Origin: an uncultured Anaerolineaceae bacterium
GTDB lineage: Bacteria; Chloroflexota; Anaerolineae; Anaerolineales; E44-bin32
Assembly (NCBI GenBank): GCA_964513155.1
Contig: CAZEMA010000004.1
Location: 5,284 to 60,609, forward strand
Length of the DNA stretch: 55,326 nt
Direction of reading: 5' to 3'
Part shown: piece after piece, positions 20,061 through 37,390 of the stretch
How positions within the stretch are numbered: position 1 is the stretch's first letter
How the letters are laid out: each line of letters begins with the position of its first letter
The notes under the pieces: model-generated
Databases searched by the model: none
What the model was told of the DNA's origin: nothing
Seen by the model: the letters and a program-made list of their open reading frames with translations, nothing else
Made by a program: the position numbers and the translations under genes

Positions 20061-20131
20061 GGGTCCGGGGCTCTCCGCGAGATGGGCTTGTCTATCGCGA
20101 CGGCCCATGAGTTTGACAGAAGGAGGAGAAG

Positions 20132-21226: not shown

Positions 21227-21410
21227 CCCACACCTAAGTGCTTGCCGTCGGTGGACGCGATCTGGTGGGCGCTACCGGGGCCCTTGCTGAGGGACGGCGG
21301 CGCGCCCTTGAATCGATGGGAAACCCGTCGGGGCCTCCAAGCCTCGAAGCTGAACGCACACGGAGCAACAGCCGGACCCGCATCCACGGCTGCGAATGAG
21401 GAGGCACGCA

Positions 21411-22622
21411 ATGAGAACCCTATTGGTCGGCTCAGGAGGTGTTGGCGAGTCCGTCGCGGTTCTTGCCCAAGACCTCCCCTGGCTCAACAGGGTTGTGCTG
21501 GCAGACATCAGCGCCAAGCGGTTGCGCGAGGTTAAGGGGAAGCTCCACAATCCGAAGAAGTTCTCGCTTGAGCCAGTCAACGCCGAGGACAAGAACCAGG
21601 TCGCCGAGCTGGCCAAGAAGCATAAGGTGGACCTGATCCTGAATGCCGTCGATCCTTTGTTCAACGAGAGTATCTTCAACGCCGCCTTCCAGTACGGGTG
21701 CACCTACATGGACTTGGCGATGACGCTCTCATCGCCGCACCCAACCGATCCTTTCCACCAGTGCGGCATCAAGCTCGGTGACTACCAGTTCGAGCGCGCC
21801 CAGAAATGGGAGAAAAGGGGCCTGCTCGCGCTCCCAGGAATGGGCGTGGAGCCCGGCTTGTCTGACGTTTTCGCCAAGTATGCCGAGAAGCACCTCTTCG
21901 ACGAGATCGATGAGATCGGCGTACGTGACGGGGGCAATCTGGAAGTGCGCGGCTATGAGTTCGCCCCCAACTTCTCCATCTGGACCACGATCGAAGAGTG
22001 CCTGAACCCGCCCGTGATCTGGGAGAAGACCCGGGGATGGTACACCACCGAGCCCTTCTCCGAGGTCGAGGTCTTCGATTTCCCGGAGGGTATCGGGCCG
22101 CAGGAGTGCGTCAACGTCGAGCACGAAGAGGTCTTGCTCGTTCCCCGCTGGGTAAAGTGTAAGCGCGTCACCTTCAAGTACGGTCTCGGGGACAGATTCA
22201 TCCGCGTGCTCAAGACACTCAAGATGCTCGGCCTGGACAACAAGCACGCGATCGAGGTCAAGGGCGTCAAGGTCGCCCCGCGCGATGTGGTCGCCGCCTG
22301 TCTGCCAGACCCGGCGCACCTGGGAGACAAGATGTTCGGCCAGACCTGCGCCGGCACCTGGGTGAAGGGCAAGAAGGACGGCAAGCCGCGCCAGGTGTAC
22401 CTGTACCAGGTGGCCGACAACGAGACCTGCATGAAGAAGTACGGCGTTCAGGCTGTGGTCTGGCAGACGGCGGTCAACCCGATCATCGCCATGGAGCTGC
22501 TCGAGACCGGGGTTTGGAAGGGTAAGGGTGTGCTGGGGCCGGAAGCCTTCGACCCGGACCCGTTCCTGGAGCGGATGCCCAAATACGATTTCCCCTACGC
22601 GATCAAGGAGATGGCCCCCTGA
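21411..22622 (+). CDS. Saccharopine-dehydrogenase-family NAD(P) oxidoreductase (paralog 1)
   Basis: A GAGGAGG SD precedes the ATG at 21411. MRTLLVGSGGVGESVA is a Rossmann motif. The protein has long identity blocks with the ORF at 27912-29096 (DVFAKYAEKHLFDEIDEIG..., RGWYTTEPFSE..FDFPEGIGP). Confidence 0.75.
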   Translation: MRTLLVGSGGVGESVAVLAQDLPWLNRVVLADISAKRLREVKGKLHNPKKFSLEPVNAEDKNQVAELAKKHKVDLILNAVDPLFNESIFNAAFQYGCTYMDLAMTLSSPHPTDPFHQCGIKLGDYQFERAQKWEKRGLLALPGMGVEPGLSDVFAKYAEKHLFDEIDEIGVRDGGNLEVRGYEFAPNFSIWTTIEECLNPPVIWEKTRGWYTTEPFSEVEVFDFPEGIGPQECVNVEHEEVLLVPRWVKCKRVTFKYGLGDRFIRVLKTLKMLGLDNKHAIEVKGVKVAPRDVVAACLPDPAHLGDKMFGQTCAGTWVKGKKDGKPRQVYLYQVADNETCMKKYGVQAVVWQTAVNPIIAMELLETGVWKGKGVLGPEAFDPDPFLERMPKYDFPYAIKEMAP

Positions 22623-22733
22623 TCTCCGCCAGGACTGTGTCCGGCCCCGTGAGCCAATGGACCGGGCACAATCCGGGCAGCCTGCGTCCGCGCCCGCTCC
22701 GCCTCAGCAAGTTACGCCCGTCGGGAGCGTTCT

Positions 22734-24092
22734 ATGCCGCAATCCCTGCACGATGCGCTTGAGTACTCGCACCAATGGTTGGGCATTATCAAGAACCCTC
22801 AGGTCTCCCAGGAGGAAGGCAAGCGGATCATCGAAGAGGCGACTCTCAACTTCGCCGAGTACTTCAACAAAGGCTGGCTCGAGTACCGCAAGTCGGTGAC
22901 GGAGGCCGGCGATTGGGCGGCGACCGAGTGGACCGGCCACGGGGCTTCCTTCCAGGATGTGCTCGGGCGCGAATTCATTGACTGCCTCGGCGGCTTCGGG
23001 ATGCTCAATCACGGCTGGAGCCATCCCGAGATCGTGGCCGCCGTCCAGGCCCAGTTGCTGCGGACCCCGATGCCCACCCAGGAGTTGATCGATCCGCTCC
23101 GGGGCGTGCTGGCCCGGTTGATGGCCCAGATCACCCCCGGAGACATCCGCTACAGCTTCTTTGCGGCCAGCGGCACCGAGGCAATCGAAGGGGCGATCAA
23201 GCTGGCCAAGATGCACACCCGCAAGCCCGGCTTCATCGCCGCACTCCAGGCCTTCCATGGCAAGACAATGGGGTCGCTCAGCATGCTCGGCAAGGCCGAG
23301 TACCGTGAGCCTGCGGGGATACTCTATGGCGGCCCGGTCTACCACGTCCCCTTCGGTGACGCCGAGGCGGTCGAGCGGCAACTCGATGCCTGCCGCACGG
23401 TCGGCGTGGGGATCGCGGCGGTGCTGATGGAGCCGATTCAGGGCGAGGCCGGTGCCATCGTACCCCCCGACGATTTCTGGCCCCGCATCCGCCAGGCCAC
23501 CCGCGAGCATGGCGCCCTGCTGATCGCCGACGAGGTTCAGACTGGCCTCGGCCGGACCGGAAAGCTCTGGGGTGTCGATCACTGGCAGGTCGAGCCCGAC
23601 ATCCTGGCCGTGGCCAAGTCGCTCGGCGGCGGGATCATGCCGGTCAGCGCCTTCTGCTCGACCGAGGAGATCTGGCAGTGCATGATGACACCCAACCCGT
23701 TCATTCACACCAACACGACGGGCGGCGGGGCTCTGGCGTGCAGCGCGGCGATCGCCTCGATCCACGTTACGCTGCGCGATCGGCTCTGGGAGCAGGCCGC
23801 CGCCAAGGGTGAGTTCCTGATGCCGAAGCTGCAGGCCCTGGCCGAGCGCTTCCCGGCCGTCTACCGAGGCATCACCGGCAAGGGCCTGCTCATCGGACAG
23901 CACTTCCGGACGCCGCAGATCGGCTATCGCGTCGCCGCCGGATTGTTCCGGCGCGGCATCCTGGTCTCGGGCAATCTCACCAGCGCCCACACCGTGCGGA
24001 TCGAGCCCCCGCTGGTGATCACCTACGAGCAGCTTGAGGCCGTGCTGGACCGCCTGGAGGACGCCGTGGCGGAGGTCCATCGGAGCCTGTGA
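22734..24092 (+). CDS. Class-III PLP aminotransferase, putrescine-aminotransferase-like
   Basis: The N-terminus (AEYFNKGWLEYRKSV...) resembles PatA/YgjG. DEVQTGLGRTGKLWG and AKSLGGG (Schiff-base Lys region) are also present. Confidence 0.75.
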   Translation: MPQSLHDALEYSHQWLGIIKNPQVSQEEGKRIIEEATLNFAEYFNKGWLEYRKSVTEAGDWAATEWTGHGASFQDVLGREFIDCLGGFGMLNHGWSHPEIVAAVQAQLLRTPMPTQELIDPLRGVLARLMAQITPGDIRYSFFAASGTEAIEGAIKLAKMHTRKPGFIAALQAFHGKTMGSLSMLGKAEYREPAGILYGGPVYHVPFGDAEAVERQLDACRTVGVGIAAVLMEPIQGEAGAIVPPDDFWPRIRQATREHGALLIADEVQTGLGRTGKLWGVDHWQVEPDILAVAKSLGGGIMPVSAFCSTEEIWQCMMTPNPFIHTNTTGGGALACSAAIASIHVTLRDRLWEQAAAKGEFLMPKLQALAERFPAVYRGITGKGLLIGQHFRTPQIGYRVAAGLFRRGILVSGNLTSAHTVRIEPPLVITYEQLEAVLDRLEDAVAEVHRSL

Positions 24093-24176
24093 GGCCCGGC
24101 CGCAGGCAAGCCCAGCCGCAACCTTTCTCCCAGGGGATCCGCCGGCAGCGCTTTGGTCAGATGAATGGAGGCTTGT

Positions 24177-25493
24177 ATGAACAAGGGTGATCAGAGACTG
24201 AGCGGCGACGAAATCGTCCGTCTCAATCGCCAGCATGTCTTCTTCTCGTGGTCCGTCCAGAACAGCGTCGATCCGATCCCAGTCGTCGGCGGTGAGGGCA
24301 TCACCTACTGGGACGCCCGAGGCAAGCGCTACCTGGATTTCTCCTCCCAGCTGATGAACCTGAACATCGGCTACCAGCATCCCAAGGTCGTGGCTGCGAT
24401 CCAGGAGCAGGCCGCCCGGCTGTGTGCCGCCCACCCCGGTGCCGCCCACGAGCCAAAGGCCGTCCTGGGCCAGCGCGTCGCCGAGGTCACGCCGGGAGAC
24501 CTCAACAAGGTCTTCTTCACTCTGGGCGGGGCCGAGGCCAACGAGAACGCCATCAAGTTCGCCCGCCAGTACACCGGCCGTCAGAAGATCCTGGCCCGCT
24601 ATATCTCCTACCACGGGGCCACCTACGGCGCCATCAGCCTGAGCGGCGACTACCGCCGACCGCCGGTCGAGCCGGGCATTCCTGGGGTCATCCACACCTT
24701 CGATCCTTACTGCTACCGCTGCGTCTTCGGCCAGAAGCCGGAGACCTGCCACCGCGAGTGCATTACCCACATCGAGCAGATGATCCAGTACGAGAACCCG
24801 GACACAGTCGCCGCCTTGATCATGGAAGGCGTCACTGGCTCGAACGGCATCCTCGTGCCCCCGGATGACTACTGGCCCCGCCTGCGAGAGATCACCCGCA
24901 AGTACGGGATCCTGCTGATCTCCGACGAGGTCATGACCGGCTTCGGCCGCACCGGCAAGTGGTTCGCCGTGGACCACTGGAACGTCGTCCCGGACATCAT
25001 GACCATCGCTAAGGGGCTGACCTCCGGCTATCTCCCGCTCGGCGCCGTGGTCGTCTCCGATCCGATCGCCGAATACTTCGAAGACAAGATGCTCTACATG
25101 GGGCTGACCTACTTCGGCCACCCGATGTCGTGTGCGGCCGGCATCGCCACCTTGGATGTGTATGAGCAGGAGAACCTGATCGAGAACAGCCGGCGGATGG
25201 GAGAAGTCCTGGCTGCGGAGCTGGCCCGGATGAAAGCCGAGCACCCGGCCATCGGCGACGTGCGGTCGATCGGACTCTTCTCTGCCATCGAGCTGGTCAG
25301 GGATCGGGAGGGGCGTGAGCCTATGGGCCCGGACGTGATGAACGCGATCAAGTCCCGCCTGCTGGCCGAGGGACTGACAACCTTCATCAACAAGAACATG
25401 GTCTTCGTTTGCCCGCCACTGATCATCACCCAGGACGAGTTGCTGGCCGGATTGGCGATCATCGAGCGGGCGATCGCCGCCGAGGCGGGGTAG
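24177..25493 (+). CDS. Class-III PLP aminotransferase (omega-amino acid:pyruvate type)
   Basis: The ATG at 24177 follows a GGAGG. DEVMTGFGRTGKWFA and IAKGLTSGYLPLG are class-III aminotransferase motifs. Confidence 0.8.
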   Translation: MNKGDQRLSGDEIVRLNRQHVFFSWSVQNSVDPIPVVGGEGITYWDARGKRYLDFSSQLMNLNIGYQHPKVVAAIQEQAARLCAAHPGAAHEPKAVLGQRVAEVTPGDLNKVFFTLGGAEANENAIKFARQYTGRQKILARYISYHGATYGAISLSGDYRRPPVEPGIPGVIHTFDPYCYRCVFGQKPETCHRECITHIEQMIQYENPDTVAALIMEGVTGSNGILVPPDDYWPRLREITRKYGILLISDEVMTGFGRTGKWFAVDHWNVVPDIMTIAKGLTSGYLPLGAVVVSDPIAEYFEDKMLYMGLTYFGHPMSCAAGIATLDVYEQENLIENSRRMGEVLAAELARMKAEHPAIGDVRSIGLFSAIELVRDREGREPMGPDVMNAIKSRLLAEGLTTFINKNMVFVCPPLIITQDELLAGLAIIERAIAAEAG

Positions 25494-25495
25494 GG

Positions 25496-25544
25496 TTCTC
25501 TTCCGACTTCCGAAGTCCTTTGGACTTCGGAAGTCGGAAGAGAA
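25496..25544 (+). terminator. Perfect 23-bp stem / 3-nt loop hairpin between aminotransferase genes
   Basis: ttctcttccgacttccgaagtcc-ttt-ggacttcggaagtcggaagagaa starts 3 nt after the TAG at 25491-25493. Confidence 0.5.
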
Positions 25545-25578
25545 GGACATCTCAAGCCACATCGGAGGTCAAGCACGC

Positions 25579-26889
25579 ATGAGCCGCGACCTGGATCTGA
25601 CCAAGACCCGCGCCCTGTTTGAGCGCGCCCGACAAGTCATGCCCTGGGGCGTCAGCTCGAACTTCCGCTACTGCGGGGACGATACGCCGGTGATCTCCCG
25701 GGGCCAGGGCGCCTACGTCTGGGATGCCGACGGCAACCGCTTCATCGACTACCGCCTCGCCTTCGGGCCGATCATCCTTGGGCACGCCGACCCACGCGTC
25801 AACCGGCGGGTGCACCAGGCAATCGACGACGGGACGCTCTTCGCCCACACCCACGCCCTCGAGGTTGAGCTGGCCGAGAAGATCGTCCGGATGTGCCCCG
25901 GCGTCGAGATGGTCCGATTCGCCAACTCGGGCACCGAGGCGACCATGCATGCCCTACGCATCGCCCGGGCCCACACCAACCGGGAGAAGATCATCAAGTT
26001 CGAGGGAACCTACCACGGATTCCATGACTACGTCCTCTGGTCGACGGCCTACACCGCCTACGGATCGATCGGCTCGCGGCGCAGCCCGACGGCCGTCTCG
26101 AACTCCTCCGGGATCCCCGCCTGTCTACGTGATCTGGTGATCATGCTGCCCTTCAACGAGTTCGAGATGCTGGACAAGACGGTCCGGGCCCGCTGGGGCG
26201 AGATCGCCGCCATCATCGTCGAGCCGATCGCCGCCAACATGACCAGCATCCTGCCGGAGCCTGGCTGGCTGGAGCACATCCGCCGCCTGTGCGACGAGTT
26301 CGGCATCGTCATGATCGTTGACGAGGTCAAGACCGGGTTTCGCATCGCCCGCGGTGGCGCCACCGAGTACTTCGGCGTCAAAGGCGACCTGATGACCTAC
26401 GCCAAGTCGCTGGCCAACGGTTACCCCCTGGCGGCCATCGGCGGCTCGAAAGAAGTCATGAGCGTGATCGAGCCCGGCCGCATGGCCCACGGCGGCACGT
26501 ACTGCGGCAATGCCGCCGGTGTGGCAGCCGCCCTGGCCACGCTGGAGGTGATCGAGACCACCGACGCCCTAAAGACCGTCGCTGCCCGAGGCAAGCGCCT
26601 GATGGAAGGGATCGATGAGATCCTGACCGAGGCCGGTCTCGAGCACGCCCTGACCGGCGTGCCGGCCATGTTCTCATTCGTACTCGGCCTCTCACATCCG
26701 CCCCGTGAATACCGCGACCTGCAGGCGGTGGACGTGGAGCACTACAAGGCCCTCCAGACCGGCATGCGCGCCCGCGGGGTGGAGTACGAACGTGACGCCA
26801 AGGAGCCGTGGTTCGTGTGTGAGGCCCATTCCGAGGCAGACGTCGAAGTCACTCTCTCCGCACTGGCCGAAGCAGTGAAGGAGGCCTAG
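25579..26889 (+). CDS. Class-III PLP aminotransferase, glutamate-1-semialdehyde-aminomutase-like
   Basis: A GGAGG SD lies upstream. FANSGTEATMHALRIAR, DEVKTGFRIARGG and YAKSLANGYPL form the HemL-like subfamily pattern. Confidence 0.8.
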   Translation: MSRDLDLTKTRALFERARQVMPWGVSSNFRYCGDDTPVISRGQGAYVWDADGNRFIDYRLAFGPIILGHADPRVNRRVHQAIDDGTLFAHTHALEVELAEKIVRMCPGVEMVRFANSGTEATMHALRIARAHTNREKIIKFEGTYHGFHDYVLWSTAYTAYGSIGSRRSPTAVSNSSGIPACLRDLVIMLPFNEFEMLDKTVRARWGEIAAIIVEPIAANMTSILPEPGWLEHIRRLCDEFGIVMIVDEVKTGFRIARGGATEYFGVKGDLMTYAKSLANGYPLAAIGGSKEVMSVIEPGRMAHGGTYCGNAAGVAAALATLEVIETTDALKTVAARGKRLMEGIDEILTEAGLEHALTGVPAMFSFVLGLSHPPREYRDLQAVDVEHYKALQTGMRARGVEYERDAKEPWFVCEAHSEADVEVTLSALAEAVKEA

Positions 26890-26897
26890 CCAGCACC

Positions 26898-27159
26898 ATG
26901 TGCCCTGAGATCCTAACCCTCAACTACGTCGATGGCGGCTGGCGGCCGTCCGGCGCGGCGGTTCCGCTACGAGGTCGAAGCCGGGAACATTGGCATCAAC
27001 ATCGGCGTGGCCGCGCCGATGGCTTTCTTCCCCTTCAGCGGCTGGAAAGAGAGCTTCTTCGGCGACTTGCACGGCCAGGGCCTGGACGCGGTCGGGTTCT
27101 TCACCCAGAAGAAGGTCGTGATCGAGCGCTGGCCTAGGGAATGGTCGCGCACGTCCTAA
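26898..27159 (+). pseudogene. Internally deleted (CoA-acylating methylmalonate-semialdehyde type) aldehyde dehydrogenase remnant
   Basis: Frame A (26898-) reads ...[13 protein letters not shown], an ALDH N-terminus. Frame B (26932-27159) reads [56 protein letters not shown], an MmsA/IolA-type C-terminus. Roughly 400 aa of the middle is missing. Confidence 0.7.
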
Positions 27160-27261: not shown

Positions 27262-27915
27262 ATGAGCCAAGAGATGTTCGATGAGATGGCCCAGAGCATC
27301 ATCGATGGCGAACCCGACATCGCCGCGGCGCTGGCCAAGCGGGCCGTAGCCGAGGGGGTCGACCCTCTAGATGCGGTCAACAAAGGATTCCTCATTGGTG
27401 TCAACCGCGTCGGAGAGATGTTCAGCTGCGGGGAGGCCTTTCTTCCCGATCTCGTCTTGGCCGGCGAGGCAATGAAGGCCGCCGTCGCCGTGCTCGATCC
27501 GGAGCTAGCGAAGAGCGGCCTGCAGCGGCAGACGTTGGGCAAGGTGGTGATTGGCACGGTCCAGGGAGACATCCACGACATCGGCAAGACGCTGGTCGCG
27601 ACCTTGCTGGCTGCCGGCGGCTTCGAGGTCTACGATCTCGGGGTAGACGTCTCGGCCGAGGAGTTCGCCGAGAAAGCGCGGCACGTCGGCGCCAGCATCG
27701 TCGGTCTAAGCGCTCTGCTGACCACGACGATGGTCAATCAGAAGACGGTCATCGAGGCCCTGGACGATCTGGGACTCCGGCCGAAGGTCAAGGTGATGGT
27801 CGGGGGTGCGCCGGTGACGCGGACTTGGGCCGAACAGATCGGCGCAGATGGCTACAGTGAGGACGCCATCGGCGCCGTGGGGGAGGCCAAGAGACTGATG
27901 GGAGGCGCCTCATGA
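27262..27915 (+). CDS. Cobalamin-binding corrinoid protein (MtgC/MttC/MtbC type)
   Basis: It has an N-terminal four-helix cap (B12-binding_2-like), a DxHxxG motif (GDIHDIGK, D at nt 27568), an SxL motif (GLSALLT) and a GG motif (VMVGGAPV). The protein is 217 aa. Confidence 0.85.
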
Positions 27916-29096
27916 GAGTCCTGCTCCTCGGGACCGGCTCCGTTGGAGAGGCCATTGCGCTTGTTGCCCACAAGCGGCCCTGGCTCGAAGGCCTGGTCCT
28001 AGCGGACTACAACCTCGAACGCGCCCGGACGGTCCAGGCCCGGTTAGGGCCGCCGGAGGTGTTCCCGGTCGAGCAGGTCGATGCGCGCGACACCCGGCGG
28101 GTCGTCCAGCTGGCCCGCCAGCATCGCGCCAACCTGATCATGAATGCCGTGAGCAGCATTTACAACGACTCGGTGTTCGACGCGGCCTTCGAGGCCGGAT
28201 GCGGATACATCGACATGGCCATGTCGGGCACCGGCGCCGAGATGGGCAGCTACCAGTTCGGCCAGGCCGCGCGCTGGGAGCAAAGGGGGCTGCTGGCCCT
28301 GCTGTGCATGGGGATGGATCCAGGGGTCTCGGACGTTTTCGCCAAGTACGCCGAGAAGCACCTCTTCGACGAGATCGACGAAATCGGCATCCGCGACGGC
28401 GCCAATCTGGCGCTGCAGGGTTACGCATTCGCACCAACCTTTTCGGTTATCGACACCGTAGAGGAGTGCACCGATCTGCCGCTCATCTGGGAGCGCGAGC
28501 GCGGATGGTACACGACGGAGCCGTTCTCCGAGCCGGAGCTCTTCGATTTCCCCGAAGGGATCGGCCCCCTCAAGTGCATCAACATCGAGCACGAGGAGGT
28601 GGTGCTGGTGCCGCGTTGGGTCAAGTGCCGAAGGGTCACCTTCAAGTACAGCCTCGACGACGAGTTCCTGAGCATCATCAAGGCCATCAAAACGCTTGGC
28701 TTGGAGAGCTCCGTCCCGGTAGACATCAAGGGGTTGCGGGTTGCGCCGCGCGATCTCCTGGCCGCCTTGCTCCCCGATCCCGCCAGCCTGGGGGACAAGA
28801 TGAAGGGCAAGACCTGCGTCGGCACGTGGGTCAAGGGTGTCAAGGACGGCAGGCCTCGCCAGGTCTACCTCTACCAGTCCACCGACAACGCCTTTAGCAT
28901 GGAGCGCTACGGCTGCCAGGCCGTCGGACTCCAGACCGGGATCGGGCCGGTGATTGCCATGGAACTCCTGGCGACCGGCGTCTGGCAGGGCCGGGGCGTC
29001 CTCGGCCCGGAGGCGTTCGACCCCGACCCGTTCCTGGCGCGCATGCCTGCGTTCGACTTCCCCTATGGGATCGTCGAGATGGGAGTGGACACATGA
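27912..29096 (+). CDS. Saccharopine-dehydrogenase-family NAD(P) oxidoreductase (paralog 2)
   Basis: There is an ATGA overlap with the corrinoid protein gene. [16 protein letters not shown] is a Rossmann motif. The protein is a strong paralog of the ORF at 21411-22622. Confidence 0.75.
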   Translation: MRVLLLGTGSVGEAIALVAHKRPWLEGLVLADYNLERARTVQARLGPPEVFPVEQVDARDTRRVVQLARQHRANLIMNAVSSIYNDSVFDAAFEAGCGYIDMAMSGTGAEMGSYQFGQAARWEQRGLLALLCMGMDPGVSDVFAKYAEKHLFDEIDEIGIRDGANLALQGYAFAPTFSVIDTVEECTDLPLIWERERGWYTTEPFSEPELFDFPEGIGPLKCINIEHEEVVLVPRWVKCRRVTFKYSLDDEFLSIIKAIKTLGLESSVPVDIKGLRVAPRDLLAALLPDPASLGDKMKGKTCVGTWVKGVKDGRPRQVYLYQSTDNAFSMERYGCQAVGLQTGIGPVIAMELLATGVWQGRGVLGPEAFDPDPFLARMPAFDFPYGIVEMGVDT

Positions 29097-30544
29097 ACGG
29101 CGGCCGGCCTCCGATTGAACCGCTGCGGACCCACCAGAGACTGCGCTGCCTGAGCGATCATCAACTCGACCAACTTCAGGAAGCGACGCTTCAGATCCTG
29201 GAGGAAGTGGGCGTCCGCTTTCCTTCGGAGAAGGCGCTCGCGATCCTGTCCGGCCACGGCGCCCGGGTTGACCCCAAGACACAGGTTGCCAGATTTCCAA
29301 GAGAACTCGTACTCGGGGCAATGTCGAGCGTGCCGCGGTACTTCCACCTCGGTGCCCGCGATCCCTCCCTTGACCTCCAGCTTCAGGACGGGGTCACCTA
29401 CTTCACCTCGGACGGATGCGGGGTCGAGACGGTCGACTTCGAGACCGGCCAGCGGCGTCCCTCGTGCAAGGCGGATGTGGCGCTCATGGCGCGCGTCTGC
29501 GACTATCTCTCGTCAATGGCCTTCTGCTGGCCGATGGTCAGCGCCCAGGATCATGGCAGGACCGCGCCCCTGCACGAGATGGACGCTTGCTGGAACAACA
29601 CCCTTAAGCATGTCCAGAGTGAGACGATCATGGGCGAGGCGCCGGCCCGCTACGCAGTCGAAATGGGCAGTGTGATCGCCGGCAGCCAGGACGAGCTTCG
29701 CCGCCGCCCGACGTTCTCCCTCGTGGTATGCACGATCGCCCCCCTGGTCCAGGATAAGGCCGGCATCGAGGGAGCGCTCGTCCTGGCTGAAGCCGGCGTG
29801 CCGGTCGGCTTTCTGGCCATGCCAACCATGGGGACCACTGCCCCGGCAAGCCTGCCAGGCGCGCTGGCCATGGCCGACGCCGAGATCGTCAGCGCCGCCG
29901 TGCTCATGCAGCTGGCCGCTCCCGGCGCCCCCGTGTTCCACTCGCTGATGCAGGCCTGGGCCGACCCGCGCTCGGGGGCCTACATAAGCTACCCGCTCGA
30001 CTCTCGCGGCCGCTATGCGCCCGTGGAGATGGCCCATCACTGGGGAATGCCAGCCCTGGGCGCCGCCTTCGGCACAGACGCCCCGGCTCCTGGCACCTGG
30101 CAATCGGCGGCTGAGGTCGCCCTGGATCCGTTCTGGGTCGCGCTGACGGGCGCCGAGTTCGTGACAGGCATCGGCCTCGCCGAAACGTATACGCTGCTGT
30201 ACCCCGAGGCCATCATCCTGGACGACGACCTGTACCACCGGGCCCGATATGCCTTGATGGACCTGGAGATCAACGCTGAGACATTGGCCGTCGAGGTCGT
30301 CCGCGCCGTGGGGCCCGCTGGTCACTTCCTGGCGCAGAAGCACACCCGCCAGCACATGCGCCAGGCGATGAAGCCTGCCATCACCCAGATGGCCGGGGAG
30401 AGTGCCAAGTACCTCGAACCGCGCCAGGCGGCGCGAGCCAAGCTCGAATGGATCCTGAAGAACCATCAACCGGAACCCCTGGAGGTAGCCAAGCGAGCCG
30501 AGCTCGAGCGAATCCTCGCCGCCGCCGACAAGGAACTGGGGTAG
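29093..30544 (+). CDS. MttB-superfamily (trimethylamine-methyltransferase-like) methyltransferase, non-pyrrolysine type, paralog A1
   Basis: There is an ATGA overlap with the upstream gene. The protein is 483 aa. LSDHQLDQLQEATLQILEEVGV is a typical MttB-family N-terminus. There is no internal in-frame TAG. Confidence 0.8.
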   Translation: MNGGRPPIEPLRTHQRLRCLSDHQLDQLQEATLQILEEVGVRFPSEKALAILSGHGARVDPKTQVARFPRELVLGAMSSVPRYFHLGARDPSLDLQLQDGVTYFTSDGCGVETVDFETGQRRPSCKADVALMARVCDYLSSMAFCWPMVSAQDHGRTAPLHEMDACWNNTLKHVQSETIMGEAPARYAVEMGSVIAGSQDELRRRPTFSLVVCTIAPLVQDKAGIEGALVLAEAGVPVGFLAMPTMGTTAPASLPGALAMADAEIVSAAVLMQLAAPGAPVFHSLMQAWADPRSGAYISYPLDSRGRYAPVEMAHHWGMPALGAAFGTDAPAPGTWQSAAEVALDPFWVALTGAEFVTGIGLAETYTLLYPEAIILDDDLYHRARYALMDLEINAETLAVEVVRAVGPAGHFLAQKHTRQHMRQAMKPAITQMAGESAKYLEPRQAARAKLEWILKNHQPEPLEVAKRAELERILAAADKELG

Positions 30545-30574
30545 CTAGGCGATCTGCGGCCAGGAGGCAATGAG

Positions 30575-32026
30575 TTGACAAGCGAAACCCCGAAGCTGCA
30601 GCCGATCGTGCCTGCCTACCACGTGCGCCTCCTGACGGACGAGCAGCTGGATCGGTTCAAGTCGGCGACACTCACGATCCTGGACGAGGTCGGCGTTCAC
30701 TGCCCCTCACAACGAGCTCGGGACATCTACGCCGAGCACGGCGCAAGGGTGGAGGCTGACCAGCAGATCGTCCGGCTCCCGCCGGCGATGGTCCTGGAGG
30801 CCATGTCCCACGCTCCTCGCTTCTACACCATGGGGGCGCGCCAGGCAGCGTATGACCTCCGGCTCGACGGGAAGGCAATGTACATCGCCACCGACGGCTG
30901 TGGCGTGGAGACCATTGACTTCTCAACTCGCCAGCGCCGCCCGTCAATGAAAGACGACGTTGCCAAGATGGCCCGGGTGGTCGATGCCCTCCCCTCGGTC
31001 GGCTTCTACTGGCCCATCGTCAGCGCCCAGGACCATCCGCCCACTGCCCCCTTGCACGAACTGGAAGCTTCATTCAACAATACGCTCAAGCACGTCCAGA
31101 CCGAGACCGTCATGGATGAGCGCATGGCGCGCTACGCTCTCGAAATGGCCCGGGTTATCGCCGGGGACGAGACCACGCTGCGCGGGCGTCCACCTCTCTC
31201 ATCGCTGATCTGCACGATTGCGCCCCTGGCCCAGGATGGGGGAGGGATGGAGTCGGCGCTGGTCTTCGCCGAGGCTGGGCTGCCCGTCGGTTTCATGTCG
31301 ATGGCCAACACGGGCTCCACCGGGCCGGGGACGATCGCGGGCACGCTGGCCGCGGCCGACGCCGAGATCGTGGCGGCGCTGGTGCTGATCCAACTAGCGT
31401 TTCCGGGTGCTCCGGTATATCACTCCATGATGCCCGGGATCATGCACCCCCGCACCGGGGCGTATCTGGGCACGGCCTGGGAGGGCGACGTCTTCTACCC
31501 CCTGGGCGTCGAACTCGCCCACAACTGGGGCGTGCCGACTCTGGCCGGATGCTTTGGCACAGACGCCAGCGTGCCGGGCTGGCAGGCAGCCGCCGAGGCG
31601 CCTGCCTCCTTGCTCCTGTGTGCTCTGTGCGGCGCGGAGACAGGCAGTGGCATGGGGCTGCTGGAATCCTGCACCGTGCTTTACCCCGAGGCAGTGCTCC
31701 TGGACACCGACATCTACCACCGGGTGCGTATCCTGGCGGGATACCTCGAGACCGGACCCGAGGCTCTGGCCCTAGATGTGGTCCGGCAGGTCGGCCCGCG
31801 TGGCCAGTACCTGCGGAAACGCCATACCCGGGATCACCTGCGCCGCCTGAGCTTCTCGGAGCTCACCGCCCAACCCCTGCCAGGAGGCGGCTATCGGGAC
31901 CCTGTCGAGGTAGCCCGTGAGAAGGTAGACTGGATTTTGCAGAATCACCAGCCGGAGCCGTTGGAGTCCTACAAGCAAGACGAACTGGCAAGGATCCTTC
32001 GATCGGCGGAAGCGGAGCTGGCATGA
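30575..32026 (+). CDS. MttB-superfamily methyltransferase, non-pyrrolysine type, paralog A2
   Basis: A TTG start lies 7 nt after AGGAGG. The protein is 483 aa and colinear with A1 (TDGCGVETIDF, WPIVSAQDH, NNTLKHVQTE, HQPEPLE). Confidence 0.8.
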   Translation: MTSETPKLQPIVPAYHVRLLTDEQLDRFKSATLTILDEVGVHCPSQRARDIYAEHGARVEADQQIVRLPPAMVLEAMSHAPRFYTMGARQAAYDLRLDGKAMYIATDGCGVETIDFSTRQRRPSMKDDVAKMARVVDALPSVGFYWPIVSAQDHPPTAPLHELEASFNNTLKHVQTETVMDERMARYALEMARVIAGDETTLRGRPPLSSLICTIAPLAQDGGGMESALVFAEAGLPVGFMSMANTGSTGPGTIAGTLAAADAEIVAALVLIQLAFPGAPVYHSMMPGIMHPRTGAYLGTAWEGDVFYPLGVELAHNWGVPTLAGCFGTDASVPGWQAAAEAPASLLLCALCGAETGSGMGLLESCTVLYPEAVLLDTDIYHRVRILAGYLETGPEALALDVVRQVGPRGQYLRKRHTRDHLRRLSFSELTAQPLPGGGYRDPVEVAREKVDWILQNHQPEPLESYKQDELARILRSAEAELA

Positions 32027-32091
32027 GGCCGGGCCGAGGGCCAATGTCACAAGGTAACCACGGCCGGTGATGTTATCAGGAGGAGGGAGAG

Positions 32092-33837
32092 ATGCACGAC
32101 AAGTCTGAGCGCAGACGATGGATTGGGCTCACCTGGGTGGCTGTGCTGGCCATCGTGCTGGCCGGTTGCGGGACCCCGCAGCCGGAGGGGCCGACCCCCG
32201 AAGCCCCACCAGCCACGGCTGGACCCGGCGAGTTGTCCACCATCGTCATGGTCATCCCCGAGGATCCGCCTAGCTTCAACGGGTTGGTGACCGATGCCGG
32301 ATACGACTCGCTCGTTATGGAGCTCGTCCTGCTGAGCGTGACGGACATCGATCCCCAGGGCAATATCTTCCCCGAACTGGCTGCTTCTCTGCCAACGGTC
32401 GAGAACGGCGGGGTCGTCCTGGATGAGGCGAGCGGCGCCATGGACGTCACCTGGACCCTGCGCAACGATGTCTCCTGGGCGGACGGCGAGCCGGTGACCG
32501 CGGACGACGTGATCTTCACCTGGGAGGCGATCAACGCGCCCGAAGGTGGAATCTGGGTCCAGGGATCCGACTACGTCGACAGCGTTGAGAAGATCGACGA
32601 GTTCACTTTCGTCGTCCACTACACCTCCGTCTACACCGGCTACCTGACCCAGTTCGGCGGCGACCAGGTGGTCATCTGGCCTCACCACTACTGCGACGCG
32701 TCGCAGGGCTTTGTCGCCTGGGACTGCAACCGCCAGCCTCTGAGCGACGGCCCGTACATCCTCGAGGAGTGGGAGGAAGGCGACCACCTCACCTTCGTCC
32801 GCAACCCCATGTTCTACCAGGCCGGCAAGCCCTTGATTGACCGGATCATCATCCGCATCGTGCCTGAGGCGGCCGTGCGCCAGACCATGATGGCCCGGGG
32901 GGACGCCGATGTCGATGTCTGGGTGACGGAAGCGGGCATCGAGGAACTGAGCAGCGCCCCCGATGTCGCCGTCAGCATGGCCCCCAACCCCCGGTGGGTG
33001 TTCCGGCTCATCCCCAACCTGGCCGCTCGCGGAACCATCGATGCCGCGGCCACGCCCCACCCGATTCTCTCAGACGTGCGCGTGCGCCAGGCCATGCGCA
33101 TGGCGATTGACGTTGAGACCATTTCCCAGACCGTGTTCCGTGGCTATGGCCAGCCGATCTGGACGGAGTTCTTCCGCCCGCCCTACATCTGTACGATCAC
33201 CCGCCCCGCGTACGACCCCGAAGGGGCCCAGGCGATGCTGGAGTCGGCCGGTTGGGTTGACATCAATGACGACGGGGTCCGAGAGTGCCAGGGTTGCCTG
33301 AATGCTCCCGAGGGCTACCGCATGTCGATGGAATTCGCCACCTACGGTGAGTACGGCCCGGAGCTCGAACTGGCCCAGCAGTTGATCGGCGAGATGTTGG
33401 GCAGGATCGGCTTCGAGTTGCAGCTGCGGGTCCTCCAGGGACCGGTGATGTGGGCCGACCAGGCCAGCGGCGGCACCGAGCAGAATGGTCAGTTCGACCT
33501 CGACATGTACGATGATGGCTACCCCGGCGTGGACCCGACCGAGCATCTGTACTTCTATTACTACTCGGCCTCCGCCGTGCCCGATGCCGGCTTCAACGTC
33601 GGCCGGTGGATCAGCCCGGAATTCGACGCCTTGCTGGACGAGGCCTACACACTGGACGAAGCGCGGCGCCAGGAAGTGTTCTGCCAGATCGCCCAATTGC
33701 TGGACGAACAACTGCCGCAGATCCTGCTCTTCTCTGCCGTCAATGCCGACGCCCATTCCACGCGGCTTGAGGGCGTGCAATCCACGGTCAACGACATGGT
33801 GACCTGGAATGTCGCCGACTGGAGGCTCACCCAGTAG
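32092..33837 (+). CDS. Family-5 (Opp/Dpp/opine/nickel type) ABC substrate-binding lipoprotein
   Basis: An AGGAGGAGGGAG SD lies upstream. The lipobox is VLAGCG. The protein is 581 aa and has the SBP_bac_5 look (DVxWSDGEPVTADDVxFTWE). Confidence 0.85.
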   Translation: MHDKSERRRWIGLTWVAVLAIVLAGCGTPQPEGPTPEAPPATAGPGELSTIVMVIPEDPPSFNGLVTDAGYDSLVMELVLLSVTDIDPQGNIFPELAASLPTVENGGVVLDEASGAMDVTWTLRNDVSWADGEPVTADDVIFTWEAINAPEGGIWVQGSDYVDSVEKIDEFTFVVHYTSVYTGYLTQFGGDQVVIWPHHYCDASQGFVAWDCNRQPLSDGPYILEEWEEGDHLTFVRNPMFYQAGKPLIDRIIIRIVPEAAVRQTMMARGDADVDVWVTEAGIEELSSAPDVAVSMAPNPRWVFRLIPNLAARGTIDAAATPHPILSDVRVRQAMRMAIDVETISQTVFRGYGQPIWTEFFRPPYICTITRPAYDPEGAQAMLESAGWVDINDDGVRECQGCLNAPEGYRMSMEFATYGEYGPELELAQQLIGEMLGRIGFELQLRVLQGPVMWADQASGGTEQNGQFDLDMYDDGYPGVDPTEHLYFYYYSASAVPDAGFNVGRWISPEFDALLDEAYTLDEARRQEVFCQIAQLLDEQLPQILLFSAVNADAHSTRLEGVQSTVNDMVTWNVADWRLTQ

Positions 33838-33857
33838 CGGGGGGGGTTGCCCCTCCC

Positions 33858-33896
33858 GGCTCGCAGGTGCGACCGTTGCGGACGCACCTGCGAGCC
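33858..33896 (+). terminator. Intra-operon 14-bp perfect hairpin between the SBP and permease genes
   Basis: ggctcgcaggtgcg-(11 nt)-cgcacctgcgagcc lies 21 nt after the SBP stop and 17 nt before the permease start. Confidence 0.5.
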
Positions 33897-33912
33897 ATGA
33901 TTTGGGGATGAC

Positions 33913-34953
33913 ATGGGTCGCTACATCGCCCGGCGTCTGCTGCAGGCCATCCCGATGCTCTTCCTGCTCAGCCTCGTGCTGTTCACCTTGGTCAACCTGG
34001 CTCCCGGTGGGCCCCTGGCCAGCCAAGGTGTGTCGCGCCATGTCTCCCCGGAACGGCTGGAAAGGCTGAGGCGCGAATTCGGCCTGGATAAGCCCCTGGC
34101 CGTTCAGTATGTCATCTGGCTGATCGGAAATGACTGGATGAGGGTCGACGCGGACGGGGACGGTGTGCCAGACAGCTACGGCCAGCGCCGGGGCATCTTG
34201 CGAGGCGACTTCGGGTCCTCCTTCCGCACCCGCCAGCCGGTCCTCCAGGAGATCGCTGATCGCCTGCCCAATACCGCCTACCTGATGGCAGTCACCATCG
34301 TGGTCGTCGGTGTCATTGCCATTCCGGTGGGAGTCTTCTCAGCCGTCAGGCAATACTCCCTATTCGACATCGGCGTGACAACCTTGTCTTTCATGGGACA
34401 GGCGATCCCCGAGTTCTGGCTGGGCCTCATCCTGATCTTGATCTTCTACGCCCGCTTGGAGAACCCATTTACCGGCGCGCCCTTGCTCCCCTCGGGCGGG
34501 ATGTATACCCTGGGAATGGGCTTCTCGCTCTTGGATCGGATCAAGCATTTGATTCTGCCGGTCACGATGGGAGCCGTCGGCTGGGTTGCCTGGTACTCGC
34601 GCTTCCTGCGCTCCGGCATGCTGGACGTGATCAACCAGGACTACGTCCGCACCGCACGGGCCAAGGGCTTGGCCGAACGCAAGGTCCTGTACCGGCATGC
34701 CCTCAAGAACGCCTTGATCCCTCTGCTGACGATCTTCGGCCTGGACTTGCCCTACATTTTCACCGGATCCCTCTACGTCGAGCTGCTCTTCTCCTGGCCT
34801 GGCATGGGCAGGCTCTACTACCAAGCTGCGCTGGCTCGTGACTACCCACTCTTGATGGCCGTCCTGATCATCGCCTCGGCGACGACCGTCATCTGCAACC
34901 TGGTGGCCGACATCAGCTATGGCTACCTCGATCCCAGGATCCAGTATGAGTAG
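33913..34953 (+). CDS. ABC permease, DppB/OppB-like
   Basis: MGRYIARRLLQAIPMLFLLSLVLF is a typical N-terminus. The EAA-like region is YVRTARAKGL. Confidence 0.85.
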   Translation: MGRYIARRLLQAIPMLFLLSLVLFTLVNLAPGGPLASQGVSRHVSPERLERLRREFGLDKPLAVQYVIWLIGNDWMRVDADGDGVPDSYGQRRGILRGDFGSSFRTRQPVLQEIADRLPNTAYLMAVTIVVVGVIAIPVGVFSAVRQYSLFDIGVTTLSFMGQAIPEFWLGLILILIFYARLENPFTGAPLLPSGGMYTLGMGFSLLDRIKHLILPVTMGAVGWVAWYSRFLRSGMLDVINQDYVRTARAKGLAERKVLYRHALKNALIPLLTIFGLDLPYIFTGSLYVELLFSWPGMGRLYYQAALARDYPLLMAVLIIASATTVICNLVADISYGYLDPRIQYE

Positions 34954-35914
34954 CGACGGCGGCGCCGTGCGGGACGCCAGGACCTCGGCCCAAAGGGCCC
35001 GCGATCGTGCCCTCGAATCCGAGCACCTCGGTTCAGACCGGGGGTCGTTGGTATGGCGCCGCTTCCGCAGTCACCCAGGGGCCGTTGTGGGCACGATGGT
35101 CCTGGCGGTCCTGATCCTCATGGTCCTGCTCGCGCCGGCGTTGCCCCACGACCCGGAGCTCTCGTCGATGTCCGAGCGGCTCCAGCCCCCCTCCTTGTCC
35201 CATCCTATGGGCACAGACGCGTTGGGCCGGGACCTGCTCACTCGCGTTCTGTATGGGGGGCGCATCTCGCTGTCGGTGGGTCTGATGGTCGTGGCGATCA
35301 CGCTGGTCATCGGGGTGCCCATCGGGGCCGTCACCGGCTACTTCGGTGGATGGATCGACGATGTTCTGATGCGGATCACGGACGCCGCCCTCAGTCTGCC
35401 GGCCATTCTCGTGCTCATCCTGCTGAGCGCCGTCCTGCAGGAGATCCCGGTGCCCTTCATCCAGCACAACAACGTGCTGATGATCGCCGTGGTGATTGGC
35501 TCCCTCTCCTGGATGACGGTCGCCCGTCTGGTGAGGGCCAGCTTCCTCACCTTCCGGGAAATGGACTTCGTCACCGCCGCCCGCTGCATTGGCGCGCCCA
35601 ACTTCCGGATCATGGCCCGACACATCCTGCCGAACGCGGTCGGCCCCATCGTGGTCGAATCCACGCTCGAGGTTGGCTACGCCATCATGGAGGAATCCGG
35701 ATTGAGCTTCCTGGGTTTCGGCATCCAACCCCCGACGCCCAGCTGGGGAAACCTGCTCAGCAACGCACAAGACCATCTCATTCGAGAACCCTGGCTGGCC
35801 ATCTTCCCCGGGTTGATGATCTTCCTGACGATCATCTCGGTCAACTACATCGGCGACGGGGTACGGGATGCATTCGATCCCTACAAGGTACTCAAGAAGA
35901 TCGGGCAAGTCTGA
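34946..35914 (+). CDS. ABC permease, DppC/OppC-like
   Basis: The ATG at 34946 overlaps the upstream stop by 8 nt. HPMGTDALGRDLLTRVLYG and FVTAARCIGA are DppC-family motifs. Confidence 0.85.
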   Translation: MSSDGGAVRDARTSAQRARDRALESEHLGSDRGSLVWRRFRSHPGAVVGTMVLAVLILMVLLAPALPHDPELSSMSERLQPPSLSHPMGTDALGRDLLTRVLYGGRISLSVGLMVVAITLVIGVPIGAVTGYFGGWIDDVLMRITDAALSLPAILVLILLSAVLQEIPVPFIQHNNVLMIAVVIGSLSWMTVARLVRASFLTFREMDFVTAARCIGAPNFRIMARHILPNAVGPIVVESTLEVGYAIMEESGLSFLGFGIQPPTPSWGNLLSNAQDHLIREPWLAIFPGLMIFLTIISVNYIGDGVRDAFDPYKVLKKIGQV

Positions 35915-35933
35915 GGTTCCCCACAGGTGAGAG

Positions 35934-37364: not shown

Positions 37365-37390
37365 CAATCCCCGAATAGAGAGGAGGAGGG

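Follow-up and report, generated by a model that had tools for sequence, protein, structure and literature searches.

A carboxyspermidine dehydrogenase-family enzyme recurrently but optionally linked to a four-paralog MttB module in a polyamine cluster of a wetland Chloroflexota genome

We analyzed a stretch of 55,326 nucleotides (hereafter the window) from the wetland Chloroflexota genome of an uncultured Anaerolineaceae bacterium; coordinates refer to the window and all features lie on the + strand unless stated otherwise. Three open reading frames are chained here by two ATGA overlaps, namely a corrinoid protein gene (27262-27915, 217 aa), a gene for a dehydrogenase of the carboxyspermidine dehydrogenase (CASDH) family with a predicted NAD-type cofactor pocket, termed SDH2 (27912-29096, 394 aa), and MttB1 (29093-30544, 483 aa), which encodes a non-pyrrolysine methyltransferase of the MttB superfamily. 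The corrinoid/SDH2 junction at 27912-27915 reads cctcATGAgagtc and the SDH2/MttB1 junction at 29093-29096 reads cacATGAacgg, so that each TGA stop codon and the following ATG have four bases in common. Both overlaps between the corrinoid, SDH-like and MttB genes had been described in an earlier sequence-only reading of this DNA, with which the ORF coordinates and the sequence agree exactly. Overlaps of this length occur at 3 of the 18 same-strand junctions of the cluster from 17176 to 42193, PotA/PotB among them, and the overlap length by itself is not unusual in this cluster. The four-base overlap is also the commonest overlap type in bacteria. The ATGA overlaps indicate operon membership and possible translational coupling; stoichiometry is not shown by them.

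The gap upstream of the corrinoid gene measures 372 nt, the widest in the cluster, and a consensus scan placed a terminator-like hairpin inside it (27000-27021). The hairpin is weak evidence, as such sites are rarer than the shuffle expectation, and it may separate the corrinoid-SDH2-MttB unit from the aminotransferase genes that precede it. Taken together, gap and hairpin suggest that a transcription unit probably begins with the triad. Close relatives (designated by locus numbers) retain the tight spacing of the three genes: in L121/L122 the overlaps comprise 4 bp (corrinoid/SDH2) and 14 bp (SDH2/MttB1), in L085 the tblastn matches of the three genes abut directly or share one base, and in more distant relatives the corresponding genes are separated by 2-96 nt.

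The corrinoid protein contains the cap and Rossmann B12-binding domains of a cognate MttB-system corrinoid protein (Pfam B12-binding_2, E 1.5e-18, and B12-binding, E 8e-28) as well as the DxHxxG motif, read off the translation as GDIHDIGK. It is MtgC/MtbC-like, with 218 bits for NCBIfam pyl_corrinoid TIGR02370 (cut-off 215) and 236 bits for MtgC. Its gene belongs to the triad only in the close relatives of the window (at least 76% identity). The triad opens a conserved module (27262-38839) with an Opp-type ABC importer and four divergent MttB paralogs. MttB1 (Pfam MTTB, 2.2e-53) is followed by MttB2 (30575-32026, Pfam MTTB), which is 52% identical to MttB1 and adjoins it in all modules in which both orthologs were detected. 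Further downstream lie an Opp/Nik-type (family 5) solute-binding protein (32092-33837; Pfam SBP_bac_5, 5e-60), to which characterized binders match only distantly, two ABC permeases (33913-34953 and 34919-35914; Pfam BPD_transp_1, BPD_transp_1_N and OppC_N across both), MttB3 (35934-37364) and MttB4 (37391-38839), the last two again with Pfam MTTB. An importer ATPase gene is absent from the module within this window; in L123 OppD/F-type ATPase genes come after the module.

Four MttB paralogs per module are conserved, with 31-52% identity to one another. Their Pfam MTTB matches and the PDB matches 7xcl and 9yce identify the MttB fold of an MT1, and MttB1 is 26-28% identical to MtgB and to the MttB of M. 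barkeri. No in-frame UAG is present in any of the four, and the pyrrolysine position is occupied by G, G, G/S and S/T in MttB1 to MttB4, respectively. The combination of an MttB-fold MT1 with a cognate-type corrinoid protein is shared with the known systems (MtgB/MtgC; MtcB, MtpB and MtyB with MtqC/MtqA; MthBCA with MthK of Eubacterium limosum), but the module differs from them in the number of divergent paralogs and in its dedicated Opp-type importer. It also differs in the substrate site, as the residues of the MtgB glycine-betaine site (Y97, R312, H348, F356) are replaced in the paralogs. R312 and H348 bind the carboxylate in MtgB (PMC13080624), and at the R312 position MttB3 carries an invariant Glu, which amounts to a charge reversal. 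Moreover, neither an MT2 nor an activase gene is adjacent: the module itself contains no MT2 gene, and a candidate methyl-THF:corrinoid methyltransferase-like MT2 (1212-2135; Pfam Pterin_bind; NCBIfam NF005719 with 226 bits, below the cut-off of 259) is located 25 kb upstream. A RamA-type activase domain was not found among the scanned ORFs of the window and could be encoded elsewhere in the genome.

The lack of a RamA-type activase among the scanned ORFs and the tight overlaps with both neighbours in the window's lineage would be consistent with a structural or redox role of SDH2 in the corrinoid system. It could, for instance, stand in for RamA as a reductive activator that uses NAD(P)H and is made in constant proportion to the corrinoid protein and MttB1. 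We consider such a role extremely improbable. In the majority of modules linked to SDH2, the surrounding 10 kb hold no corrinoid gene (L002, L003, L006, L123, L126), modules with a corrinoid gene but without SDH2 exist (L128, L134), and SDH2 has kept the complete substrate-side catalytic apparatus of CASDH. In addition, we know of no member of this fold that reduces corrinoids.

In the window, the MttB/ABC module is nested within a polyamine cluster, between the aminotransferase gene AT3 and the pair AT4-AFOR. The upstream half of this cluster comprises a PotA/B/C/D-like spermidine/putrescine ABC importer (17176-21226; Pfam; NCBIfam PotD 222 bits, below the cut-off), SDH1 (21396-22622), a paralog with 60% identity to SDH2 that sits 5 kb 5' of it, and three class III aminotransferases assigned by family profile matches: a putrescine-aminotransferase-like enzyme (22734-24092), an omega-aminotransferase-like enzyme (24165-25493) and the GSA-aminomutase/GntE-like AT3 (25579-26889). 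The downstream half contains the GABA-aminotransferase-like enzyme AT4 (38957-40237) and an aldehyde:ferredoxin oxidoreductase (AFOR, 40445-42193). A homoserine dehydrogenase gene lies on the - strand at 14962-16224. The SDH1 cluster with its genes for polyamine uptake, aminotransferases and aldehyde oxidoreductases is widespread, and in dozens of loci SDH1 is flanked by GABA-aminotransferase-like and AFOR genes. The polyamine cluster of L125 is colinear with that of the window and holds SDH2 alone in the interval between AT3 and AT4-AFOR. In neighbour-joining trees built on tblastn-derived sequences, SDH2 forms a clade with 97% bootstrap, whose basal members are tandem neighbours of SDH1 within polyamine clusters, and the MttB-linked SDH2 genes fall into one subclade with 88% support. 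The triad noted from the sequence alone was confirmed, but SDH1, three further MttB paralogs, the ABC importer and the polyamine-catabolism cluster had been missed.

SDH2 contains the Pfam domains Sacchrp_dh_NADP (1.3e-11) and Sacchrp_dh_C (1.7e-19), and a phmmer search against the PDB retrieved 4ina (4.8e-61) and the CASDH 8deb (4.5e-50). Foldseek analysis of its AlphaFold model (pLDDT 86) yielded TM scores of 0.87-0.90 to the CASDHs 8deb, 8h4z and 4ina and of 0.68-0.78 to lysine dehydrogenase, saccharopine dehydrogenase and homospermidine synthase. For CASDH, PMC10413350 defines a His-Glu-Glu triad and a Glu on the substrate side; in SDH2, H227-E228-E229 and E185 align with His228-Glu229-Glu230 and Glu188 of BfCASDH and are invariant in 114 of 114 relatives. 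SDH2 therefore belongs to the CASDH family by phmmer, fold and triad, and not to the saccharopine-dehydrogenase type under which it had originally been labelled, even though the Pfam domains and the general secondary-amine dehydrogenase chemistry are common to both. Saccharopine dehydrogenase proper was rejected on the basis of TM scores of 0.70-0.78, an identity of 11-14% and the CASDH-specific triad, which true saccharopine dehydrogenases lack (PMC10413350). Bacterial homospermidine synthase is NAD-dependent, belongs to the same superfamily and oxidizes a polyamine C-N bond, but it is more distant (TM 0.68, 15% identity) and its active-site arrangement differs (PMC10413350). The original suggestion of an enzyme that handles a secondary amine agrees with the chemistry of the CASDH family, in which, as part of polyamine metabolism, a secondary amine is converted into an aldehyde and a primary amine or formed from them.

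A comparison with the carboxy(nor)spermidine dehydrogenases (CASDH/CANSDH) of Bacteroides fragilis (8DEB) and Helicobacter pylori (8H4Z) revealed the same three-domain fold and the same catalytic residues at 25-30% identity. The cofactor pocket differs, since the alignment replaces the NADP 2'-phosphate pocket S34/R35/T36/K39 of BfCASDH by D32/Y33/N34/R37 in SDH2, and D32 is retained in 110 of 114 relatives. Classically, an acidic side chain at this site signals a preference for NAD. Judged by these residues, the NADPH-specific pocket of the family is absent and the pocket of SDH2 is predicted to be of the NAD type. Two SDH2-specific changes, T181D and N188D, sit on either side of the catalytic Glu pair. 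These differences bear on the question whether SDH2 could act in biosynthesis as a carboxy(nor)spermidine dehydrogenase and join aspartate semialdehyde and a diamine to a carboxy-polyamine. The top NCBIfam and PDB matches are CASDH/CANSDH, the catalytic residues are kept and a homoserine dehydrogenase gene lies upstream, all of which would be in line with such a role, but we regard it as very unlikely. SDH2 reaches 194 bits and SDH1 220 bits for NCBIfam NF043000, far from the equivalog cut-off of 800, the predicted pocket carries Asp in place of the NADPH-specific residues, and the genes annotated in the window cluster and in the loci L001-L003 and L121-L135 include no partner carboxyspermidine decarboxylase. 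Furthermore, the surrounding genes point to catabolism (importers, aminotransferases, AFOR, MttB), which makes oxidative cleavage the likely direction of SDH2 rather than biosynthesis.

A survey of gene neighbourhoods, which had been proposed as a check from the sequence alone, confirmed that the dehydrogenase is repeatedly associated with MttB genes, in no fewer than ten loci with 66-95% identity and in three gene orders. In the literature searched, MttB and saccharopine dehydrogenase are not mentioned together. In stand-alone modules (L003, L123/L124, L126/L127) SDH2 is located between MttB2 and MttB3, with unrelated flanks (nusA/infB in L126) and without polyamine genes nearby. Sampling through MttB1 gave a different picture, as SDH2 was adjacent in none of five distinct loci and within 10 kb in one of them: in four loci the MttB/ABC module occurs without SDH2, and in the fifth the only such gene is a cut Sacchrp_dh gene at a distance of roughly 9 kb. 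Conversely, close SDH2 orthologs without an MttB gene are found in L125, L088 and L022, and SDH2 without MttB also in L017. L134 has a 2-oxoacid:ferredoxin oxidoreductase and an aldehyde dehydrogenase in the place of SDH2, and in L132 a kinase-aminotransferase fusion and a Sacchrp_dh gene are located next to MttB genes. The link is optional in both directions, and with this inconstant co-occurrence SDH2 is not a fixed, stoichiometrically coupled member of the methyltransferase system, as the sequence-only reading had put it. As the linkage is recurrent in relatives yet optional, SDH2 is probably a pathway neighbour and not a methyltransferase subunit.

This mixed pattern could also mean that there is no direct metabolic link, i.e. 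that SDH2 serves the polyamine pathway only, that the MttB/ABC module was inserted beside it or co-travels in an amine-catabolism island, and that the ATGA overlaps reflect operon compaction only. Each partner occurs without the other, the module of the window interrupts a cluster that is colinear with that of L125, and four-base overlaps are common here. Nevertheless, we consider this rather unlikely, because SDH2 keeps its place between MttB2 and MttB3 in the stand-alone modules, where polyamine genes are not nearby, the linkage persists through three gene orders and the MttB-linked SDH2 genes form a single subclade.

An enzyme that processes the substrate is not without precedent in an MttB cluster. 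The premise that characterized systems consist of an MT1, a corrinoid protein, an MT2 and an activase is outdated, since the choline system of Eubacterium limosum (MthBCA) additionally contains MthK, a substrate-conditioning kinase (PMC12155760). SDH2 is likewise an extra enzyme in its cluster, but a predicted NAD-type dehydrogenase instead of a kinase, and an optional one. By analogy to MthK, which alters the substrate ahead of demethylation, SDH2 might act first, either by splitting a conjugate after its import, which would set free the actual methyl donor, or by reductive coupling of the imported amine with an aldehyde to a form bound by an MttB paralog. The position of SDH2 as the second gene of the window unit, before the MttB genes, and the gene arrangement in L132 would be compatible with such conditioning. 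However, we think it improbable: SDH2 orthologs occur in genomes or clusters without nearby MttB (L125, L088, L022), the NAD-type pocket would favour oxidation over reductive coupling, and the frequent lack of SDH2 beside the MttB module indicates that conditioning is not generally required by the methyltransferases.

We therefore tentatively favour, at somewhat below an even chance, that SDH2 is a facultative catabolic accessory at the pathway level, which acts on an N-methylated cationic amine after its import and cleaves it at a secondary amine of the backbone. SDH2 would be an NAD-preferring CASDH-family dehydrogenase born by duplication of a polyamine-cluster dehydrogenase and recruited, in one Chloroflexota lineage, into a catabolic module with an Opp-type importer and four MttB, which in the window's close relatives would have a corrinoid protein of its own. 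In the proposed pathway, a cationic N-methylated amine, probably polyamine-like, would be imported, and its N-methyl groups would be passed by the MttB paralogs to the Co(I) corrinoid protein and further to tetrahydrofolate. SDH2 would then form an imine by oxidizing a C-N bond at a secondary amine in the backbone. Hydrolysis of the imine would give an aldehyde and a primary amine, and the flanking aminotransferases and the AFOR would consume these products. We infer these steps, and the order of demethylation before cleavage is pure conjecture. The CASDH fold with its invariant residues, the predicted NAD-type pocket, the SDH2-specific changes T181D and N188D, the position of SDH2 in the trees, its recurrence with MttB genes in three gene orders and the placement of the window module between AT3 and AT4-AFOR count in favour of this explanation. 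So do the precedent of MthK, the replacement of MtgB R312/H348 in the MttB paralogs together with the Glu of MttB3, and the absence of a carboxyspermidine decarboxylase-type gene from the examined loci. On the other hand, the binding protein is of the Opp/Nik type and not of the PotD type, a RamA-type activase is absent from the window and the sole MT2 candidate lies far upstream, and most modules sampled through MttB1 do without SDH2. The characterized substrates of non-pyrrolysine MttB proteins are all quaternary amines bearing an acidic group (PMC12155760), so that a polyamine-like MttB substrate would be unprecedented.

The module is conserved and environmentally common, with occurrences in Anaerolineae of wetlands and sediments. 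Methylated amines feed methanogenesis and acetogenesis in anoxic sediments. To our knowledge, only about six substrates are known for the thousands of proteins in the MttB superfamily, all of them either TMA or quaternary amines that carry an acidic group. With four distinct MttB paralogs, a dedicated importer and, within a single lineage, a dehydrogenase of the polyamine type, the module offers a concrete way towards a new class of substrates for corrinoid-dependent demethylation in anoxic sediments. The presence of CASDH-like paralogs in clusters for polyamine uptake suggests an unrecognized oxygen-independent breakdown of polyamines. A broader proposal, which we consider improbable as a whole, joins both parts: SDH1 and SDH2 would carry out O2-independent, NAD-dependent cleavage of polyamine C-N bonds, and the four-paralog MttB module would demethylate N-methylated polyamine-like cations that feed it. 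Such a route may derive from the biosynthetic CASDH fold and may occur widely across Chloroflexota and Actinomycetota, with cultured Streptomyces, Nonomuraea and Micromonospora among its carriers. If this holds true, the MttB superfamily would gain its first substrates that lack an acidic group, along with its first pathway coupled to a dehydrogenase.

The corrinoid gene (27262-27915), the dehydrogenase gene SDH2 (27912-29096) and the methyltransferase gene MttB1 (29093-30544) are three open reading frames on the plus strand, and ATGA is present at both junctions, with four bases common to each stop codon and the following start codon, as the sequence-only reading had described. Pfam assigned B12-binding_2 and B12-binding to the first product, Sacchrp_dh_NADP and Sacchrp_dh_C to the second and MTTB to the third, and the corrinoid protein, whose DxHxxG motif reads GDIHDIG, passes the cut-off of the NCBIfam model 'methyltransferase cognate corrinoid protein' (218 versus 215 bits). 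The ATGA overlaps by themselves are unremarkable: in the stretch from 17176 to 42193, which has 18 same-strand junctions, -4 overlaps account for 3. No gap in the cluster exceeds the 372 nt that precede the corrinoid gene, and this gap contains a terminator-like hairpin (27000-27021); therefore, the triad probably opens a transcription unit. An Rfam scan of the whole window detected no riboswitch or other RNA family, and in particular none for cobalamin ahead of the corrinoid gene. None of the RNA runs searched for evidence of co-transcription contains the gene, and DNA runs place the organism's DNA in wetland, peat and freshwater-sediment metagenomes. By the names of homologs, the organism belongs to Chloroflexota (Anaerolineae or Anaerolineales).

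The triad lies within a 25-kb run of plus-strand genes. Upstream are a PotABCD-like spermidine/putrescine importer (17176-21226), SDH1, another Sacchrp_dh gene with 60% identity to SDH2 (21396-22622), and three class-III aminotransferases (22734-26889). MttB1 is paired with MttB2 (29093-32026) and followed by a family-5 binding protein with two permeases (32092-35914), MttB3 and MttB4 (35934-38839), a GABA-aminotransferase-like enzyme (38957-40237) and an aldehyde:ferredoxin oxidoreductase (AFOR, 40445-42193). The ABC importer consists of the binding protein and two permeases, with no ATPase genes in the window's module; OppD/F-type ATPases follow the module only at the homologous locus L123/L124. 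The binding protein (32092-33837) matches peptide, nickel and opine-metallophore binders, all of them distantly, and these matches gave no hint of its ligand. A 260-aa ORF without Pfam or NCBIfam match (16236-17018, minus strand), divergent from the PotA-like gene, could be a regulator gene or a spurious prediction.

One representative genome per species (at least 80 loci) and metagenome contigs (at least 36 loci) were scanned, and the window's proteins were mapped onto these loci by tblastn. SDH2, the ABC genes and exactly one ortholog each of MttB1-4 were found in three gene orders: Corr-SDH2-MttB1-MttB2-SBP-perm-perm-MttB3-MttB4 (Corr, corrinoid protein; SBP/perm, binding protein and permeases) in the window, L086 and L121/L122, with fragments of the same order in L085, L089 and L117; SBP-perm-perm-MttB1-MttB2-SDH2-MttB3-MttB4 in L003, L123/L124 and L126/L127; and SDH2-SBP-perm-perm-MttB3-MttB1-MttB2-MttB4 in L002 and L006. 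The linkage of SDH2 and MttB has thus been kept through rearrangement, which argues for a functional link. The modules of the SBP-first order are stand-alone, and in L126 nusA and infB flank the module and polyamine genes are lacking in the vicinity; that SDH2 and MttB are merely co-located within an amine-catabolism island appears rather unlikely to us. A corrinoid gene adjoins SDH2 only in the Corr-first group, and the idea, to which the overlapping genes of the window might point, that SDH2 serves the corrinoid system as a structural or redox partner is hardly credible. The four paralogs are one-to-one orthologs across the modules of the window, L002, L003, L006, L086, L121, L123, L126, L130 and L133. 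MttB1 adjoins MttB2 wherever both orthologs were detected and MttB3 adjoins MttB4 in most orders, L002/L006 being the exception; this pairing may reflect heteromeric enzymes or successive demethylation steps.

The association is also optional. In L125, a locus colinear with the polyamine cluster of the window, SDH2 (72% identity) is placed between the aminotransferase AT3 and AT4-AFOR, and genes for a corrinoid protein, MttB and the ABC importer are lacking; this SDH2 nests within the MttB-linked subclade despite the MttB-free locus. Five distinct loci were sampled through MttB1 orthologs, blind to SDH. No dehydrogenase was found nearby in L128, L130/L131 and L133; L134/L135 have none of the SDH type and carry a 2-oxoacid:ferredoxin oxidoreductase and an aldehyde dehydrogenase after the MttB genes instead, and in L132 a cut Sacchrp_dh gene is located about 9 kb away, after a kinase-aminotransferase fusion. 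MttB1 of these loci is 72-77% identical to that of the window, which is as close as in the SDH2-linked modules, and therefore presence and absence of SDH2 are interleaved. The importer and the MttB paralogs form the core of the module, to which SDH2 and the corrinoid protein are accessory. Consequently, of the triad proposed in the sequence-only reading the SDH2-MttB recurrence stands, but the corrinoid gene belongs to one group only, and the optional link does not support SDH2 as a new, stoichiometrically coupled member of the methyltransferase system.

In the SDH-less module of L134 (12923-18801) the MttB genes are followed by the 2-oxoacid:ferredoxin oxidoreductase, an Fe-S/flavin oxidoreductase and the aldehyde dehydrogenase, and therefore the same core carries different downstream oxidoreductases in different lineages. 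An APH phosphotransferase domain fused to a class-III aminotransferase was observed beside or near MttB modules in L132 (18235-20598) and L128 (1-3039, minus strand). These fusions resemble pairs of a kinase and a phospho-lyase with amino alcohols as substrates, and they also bring to mind MthK, the kinase in the choline system of E. limosum. As MthK conditions choline (PMC12155760), SDH2 might likewise condition the substrate before methyl transfer, which we regard as doubtful. An AsnC/Lrp-type regulator gene heads the corrinoid-containing MttB modules of L128 (8692-9189), L132 (1309-1806) and L134 (1288-1785), and none was seen in the window.

SDH2 itself has a single NCBIfam match, carboxynorspermidine synthase, far below the cut-off (194 versus 800 bits), and its best solved relatives are 4INA (4.8e-61) and the carboxyspermidine dehydrogenase (CASDH) of Bacteroides fragilis, 8DEB (4.5e-50). 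The AlphaFold model (pLDDT 86, pTM 0.87) superimposes on CASDH structures with TM scores of 0.87-0.90, compared with just 0.68-0.78 for lysine dehydrogenase, saccharopine dehydrogenase/reductase and homospermidine synthase. CASDH is defined by His228-Glu229-Glu230 and Glu188 (PMC10413350). The aligned counterparts in SDH2, H227-E228-E229 and E185, are invariant in all 114 relatives examined. The B. fragilis enzyme holds the 2'-phosphate of NADP in a pocket of S34/R35/T36/K39 and shows no turnover with NADH. SDH2 has D32/Y33/N34/R37 at these positions, with D32 conserved in 110 of the 114 sequences. An acidic residue at this place is the classical mark of NAD preference, which suggests an oxidative, catabolic role of SDH2. 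The opposite assumption, a biosynthetic CASDH, would fit the catalytic residues but is very improbable; a carboxyspermidine decarboxylase gene is absent from every cluster examined. Compared with SDH1, SDH2 has two added Asp residues (T181D and N188D) on either side of the catalytic Glu pair. The 561-aa SDH homolog P0012 was considered as a fusion and contains an internal duplication of about 170 residues instead, most likely an assembly or gene-calling artefact producing a chimeric gene call.

Sequences of the SDH2 type group in one clade (97% bootstrap), whose basal members (L088, L022, L013) stand in tandem with SDH1 with no MttB nearby, and the link to MttB genes belongs to an inner subclade with 88% support. 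The SDH1 type is part of a conserved cluster in dozens of Anaerolineales loci (for example the window at 17176-26889 and 38957-42193, L038, L046, L057, L064, L066 and L105), comprising PotABCD and SDH1 with one or more aminotransferases, an amino-acid permease, AFOR, the GABA-aminotransferase-like enzyme, a further aminotransferase and a second AFOR, with one or two AFORs per cluster. This looks like polyamine uptake and breakdown, by an oxygen-independent pathway around a CASDH-derived enzyme. A shorter version composed of PotABCD, an aminotransferase and SDH1 was found in Actinomycetota, among them cultured Streptomyces and Micromonospora. SDH1-type orthologs of cultured actinomycetes (60-65% identity) were found in Streptomyces (L044, L070), Micromonospora (L053) and Nonomuraea (L049/L050/L063/L069/L082); those of L044, L053 and L070 adjoin PotABCD-like genes, and in L044 and L053 also a class-III aminotransferase.

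Each of MttB1-4 shares 26-29% identity with the MtgB of D. hafniense and the MttB of M. barkeri; among the paralogs, identity is 52% for the pair MttB1/MttB2 and 31-35% for the remaining pairs. None of the four paralogs contains UAG, and small residues occupy the pyrrolysine position. The experimentally defined glycine-betaine site of MtgB (Y97, R312, H348, F356; PMC13080624) is not conserved: MttB1 and MttB2 have Cys at the Y97 and Leu at the R312 position, and MttB3 has an invariant Glu in place of the carboxylate-binding Arg312. These residues argue against an acidic betaine and for a putative cationic partner group, and glycine betaine was ruled out, as the binding residues are missing. 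Diatom long-chain N-methyl polyamines, trimethyl-hydroxylysine, choline derivatives and opine metallophores were weighed as specific substrates and none was advanced. At 375-2135 a MinD/CbiA-type P-loop ATPase gene precedes a methyl-THF:corrinoid/iron-sulfur protein methyltransferase-like gene; the latter (1212-2135, AcsE/MT2-like) scores below the cut-off (226 versus 259 bits) and may be the MT2 that the module lacks, or belong to a Wood-Ljungdahl set.

The reading we favour, with slightly less than even confidence, is that the ABC importer would take up an N-methylated cationic amine, from which the MttB paralogs would strip methyl via the corrinoid protein, the methyl group then presumably passing to THF by MT2, with the gene at 1212-2135 as candidate. 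SDH2 would use NAD+ to oxidize a secondary-amine bond in the backbone, yielding an aldehyde and a primary amine, and both would be consumed by the adjacent aminotransferases and AFOR. The analysis itself shows the family of SDH2, its conserved catalytic residues and altered cofactor pocket, the recurring gene neighbourhoods and the optional link; from these we infer the nature of the substrate, the order of the steps and the catalytic direction of SDH2. In the searchable literature no paper ties MttB to saccharopine dehydrogenase or the enzyme family of SDH2, or a Sacchrp_dh-type enzyme to polyamine catabolism, and for Anaerolineae MAGs there has been only generic mention of mttB homologs to date (PMC11264602). 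In its way of working the module would resemble known MttB/corrinoid demethylation systems and SDH2 the CASDH-type secondary-amine dehydrogenases, but it differs from every characterised case in the set of four MttB paralogs, an Opp-type importer dedicated to the module and an NAD-type dehydrogenase that is derived from CASDH and optional.
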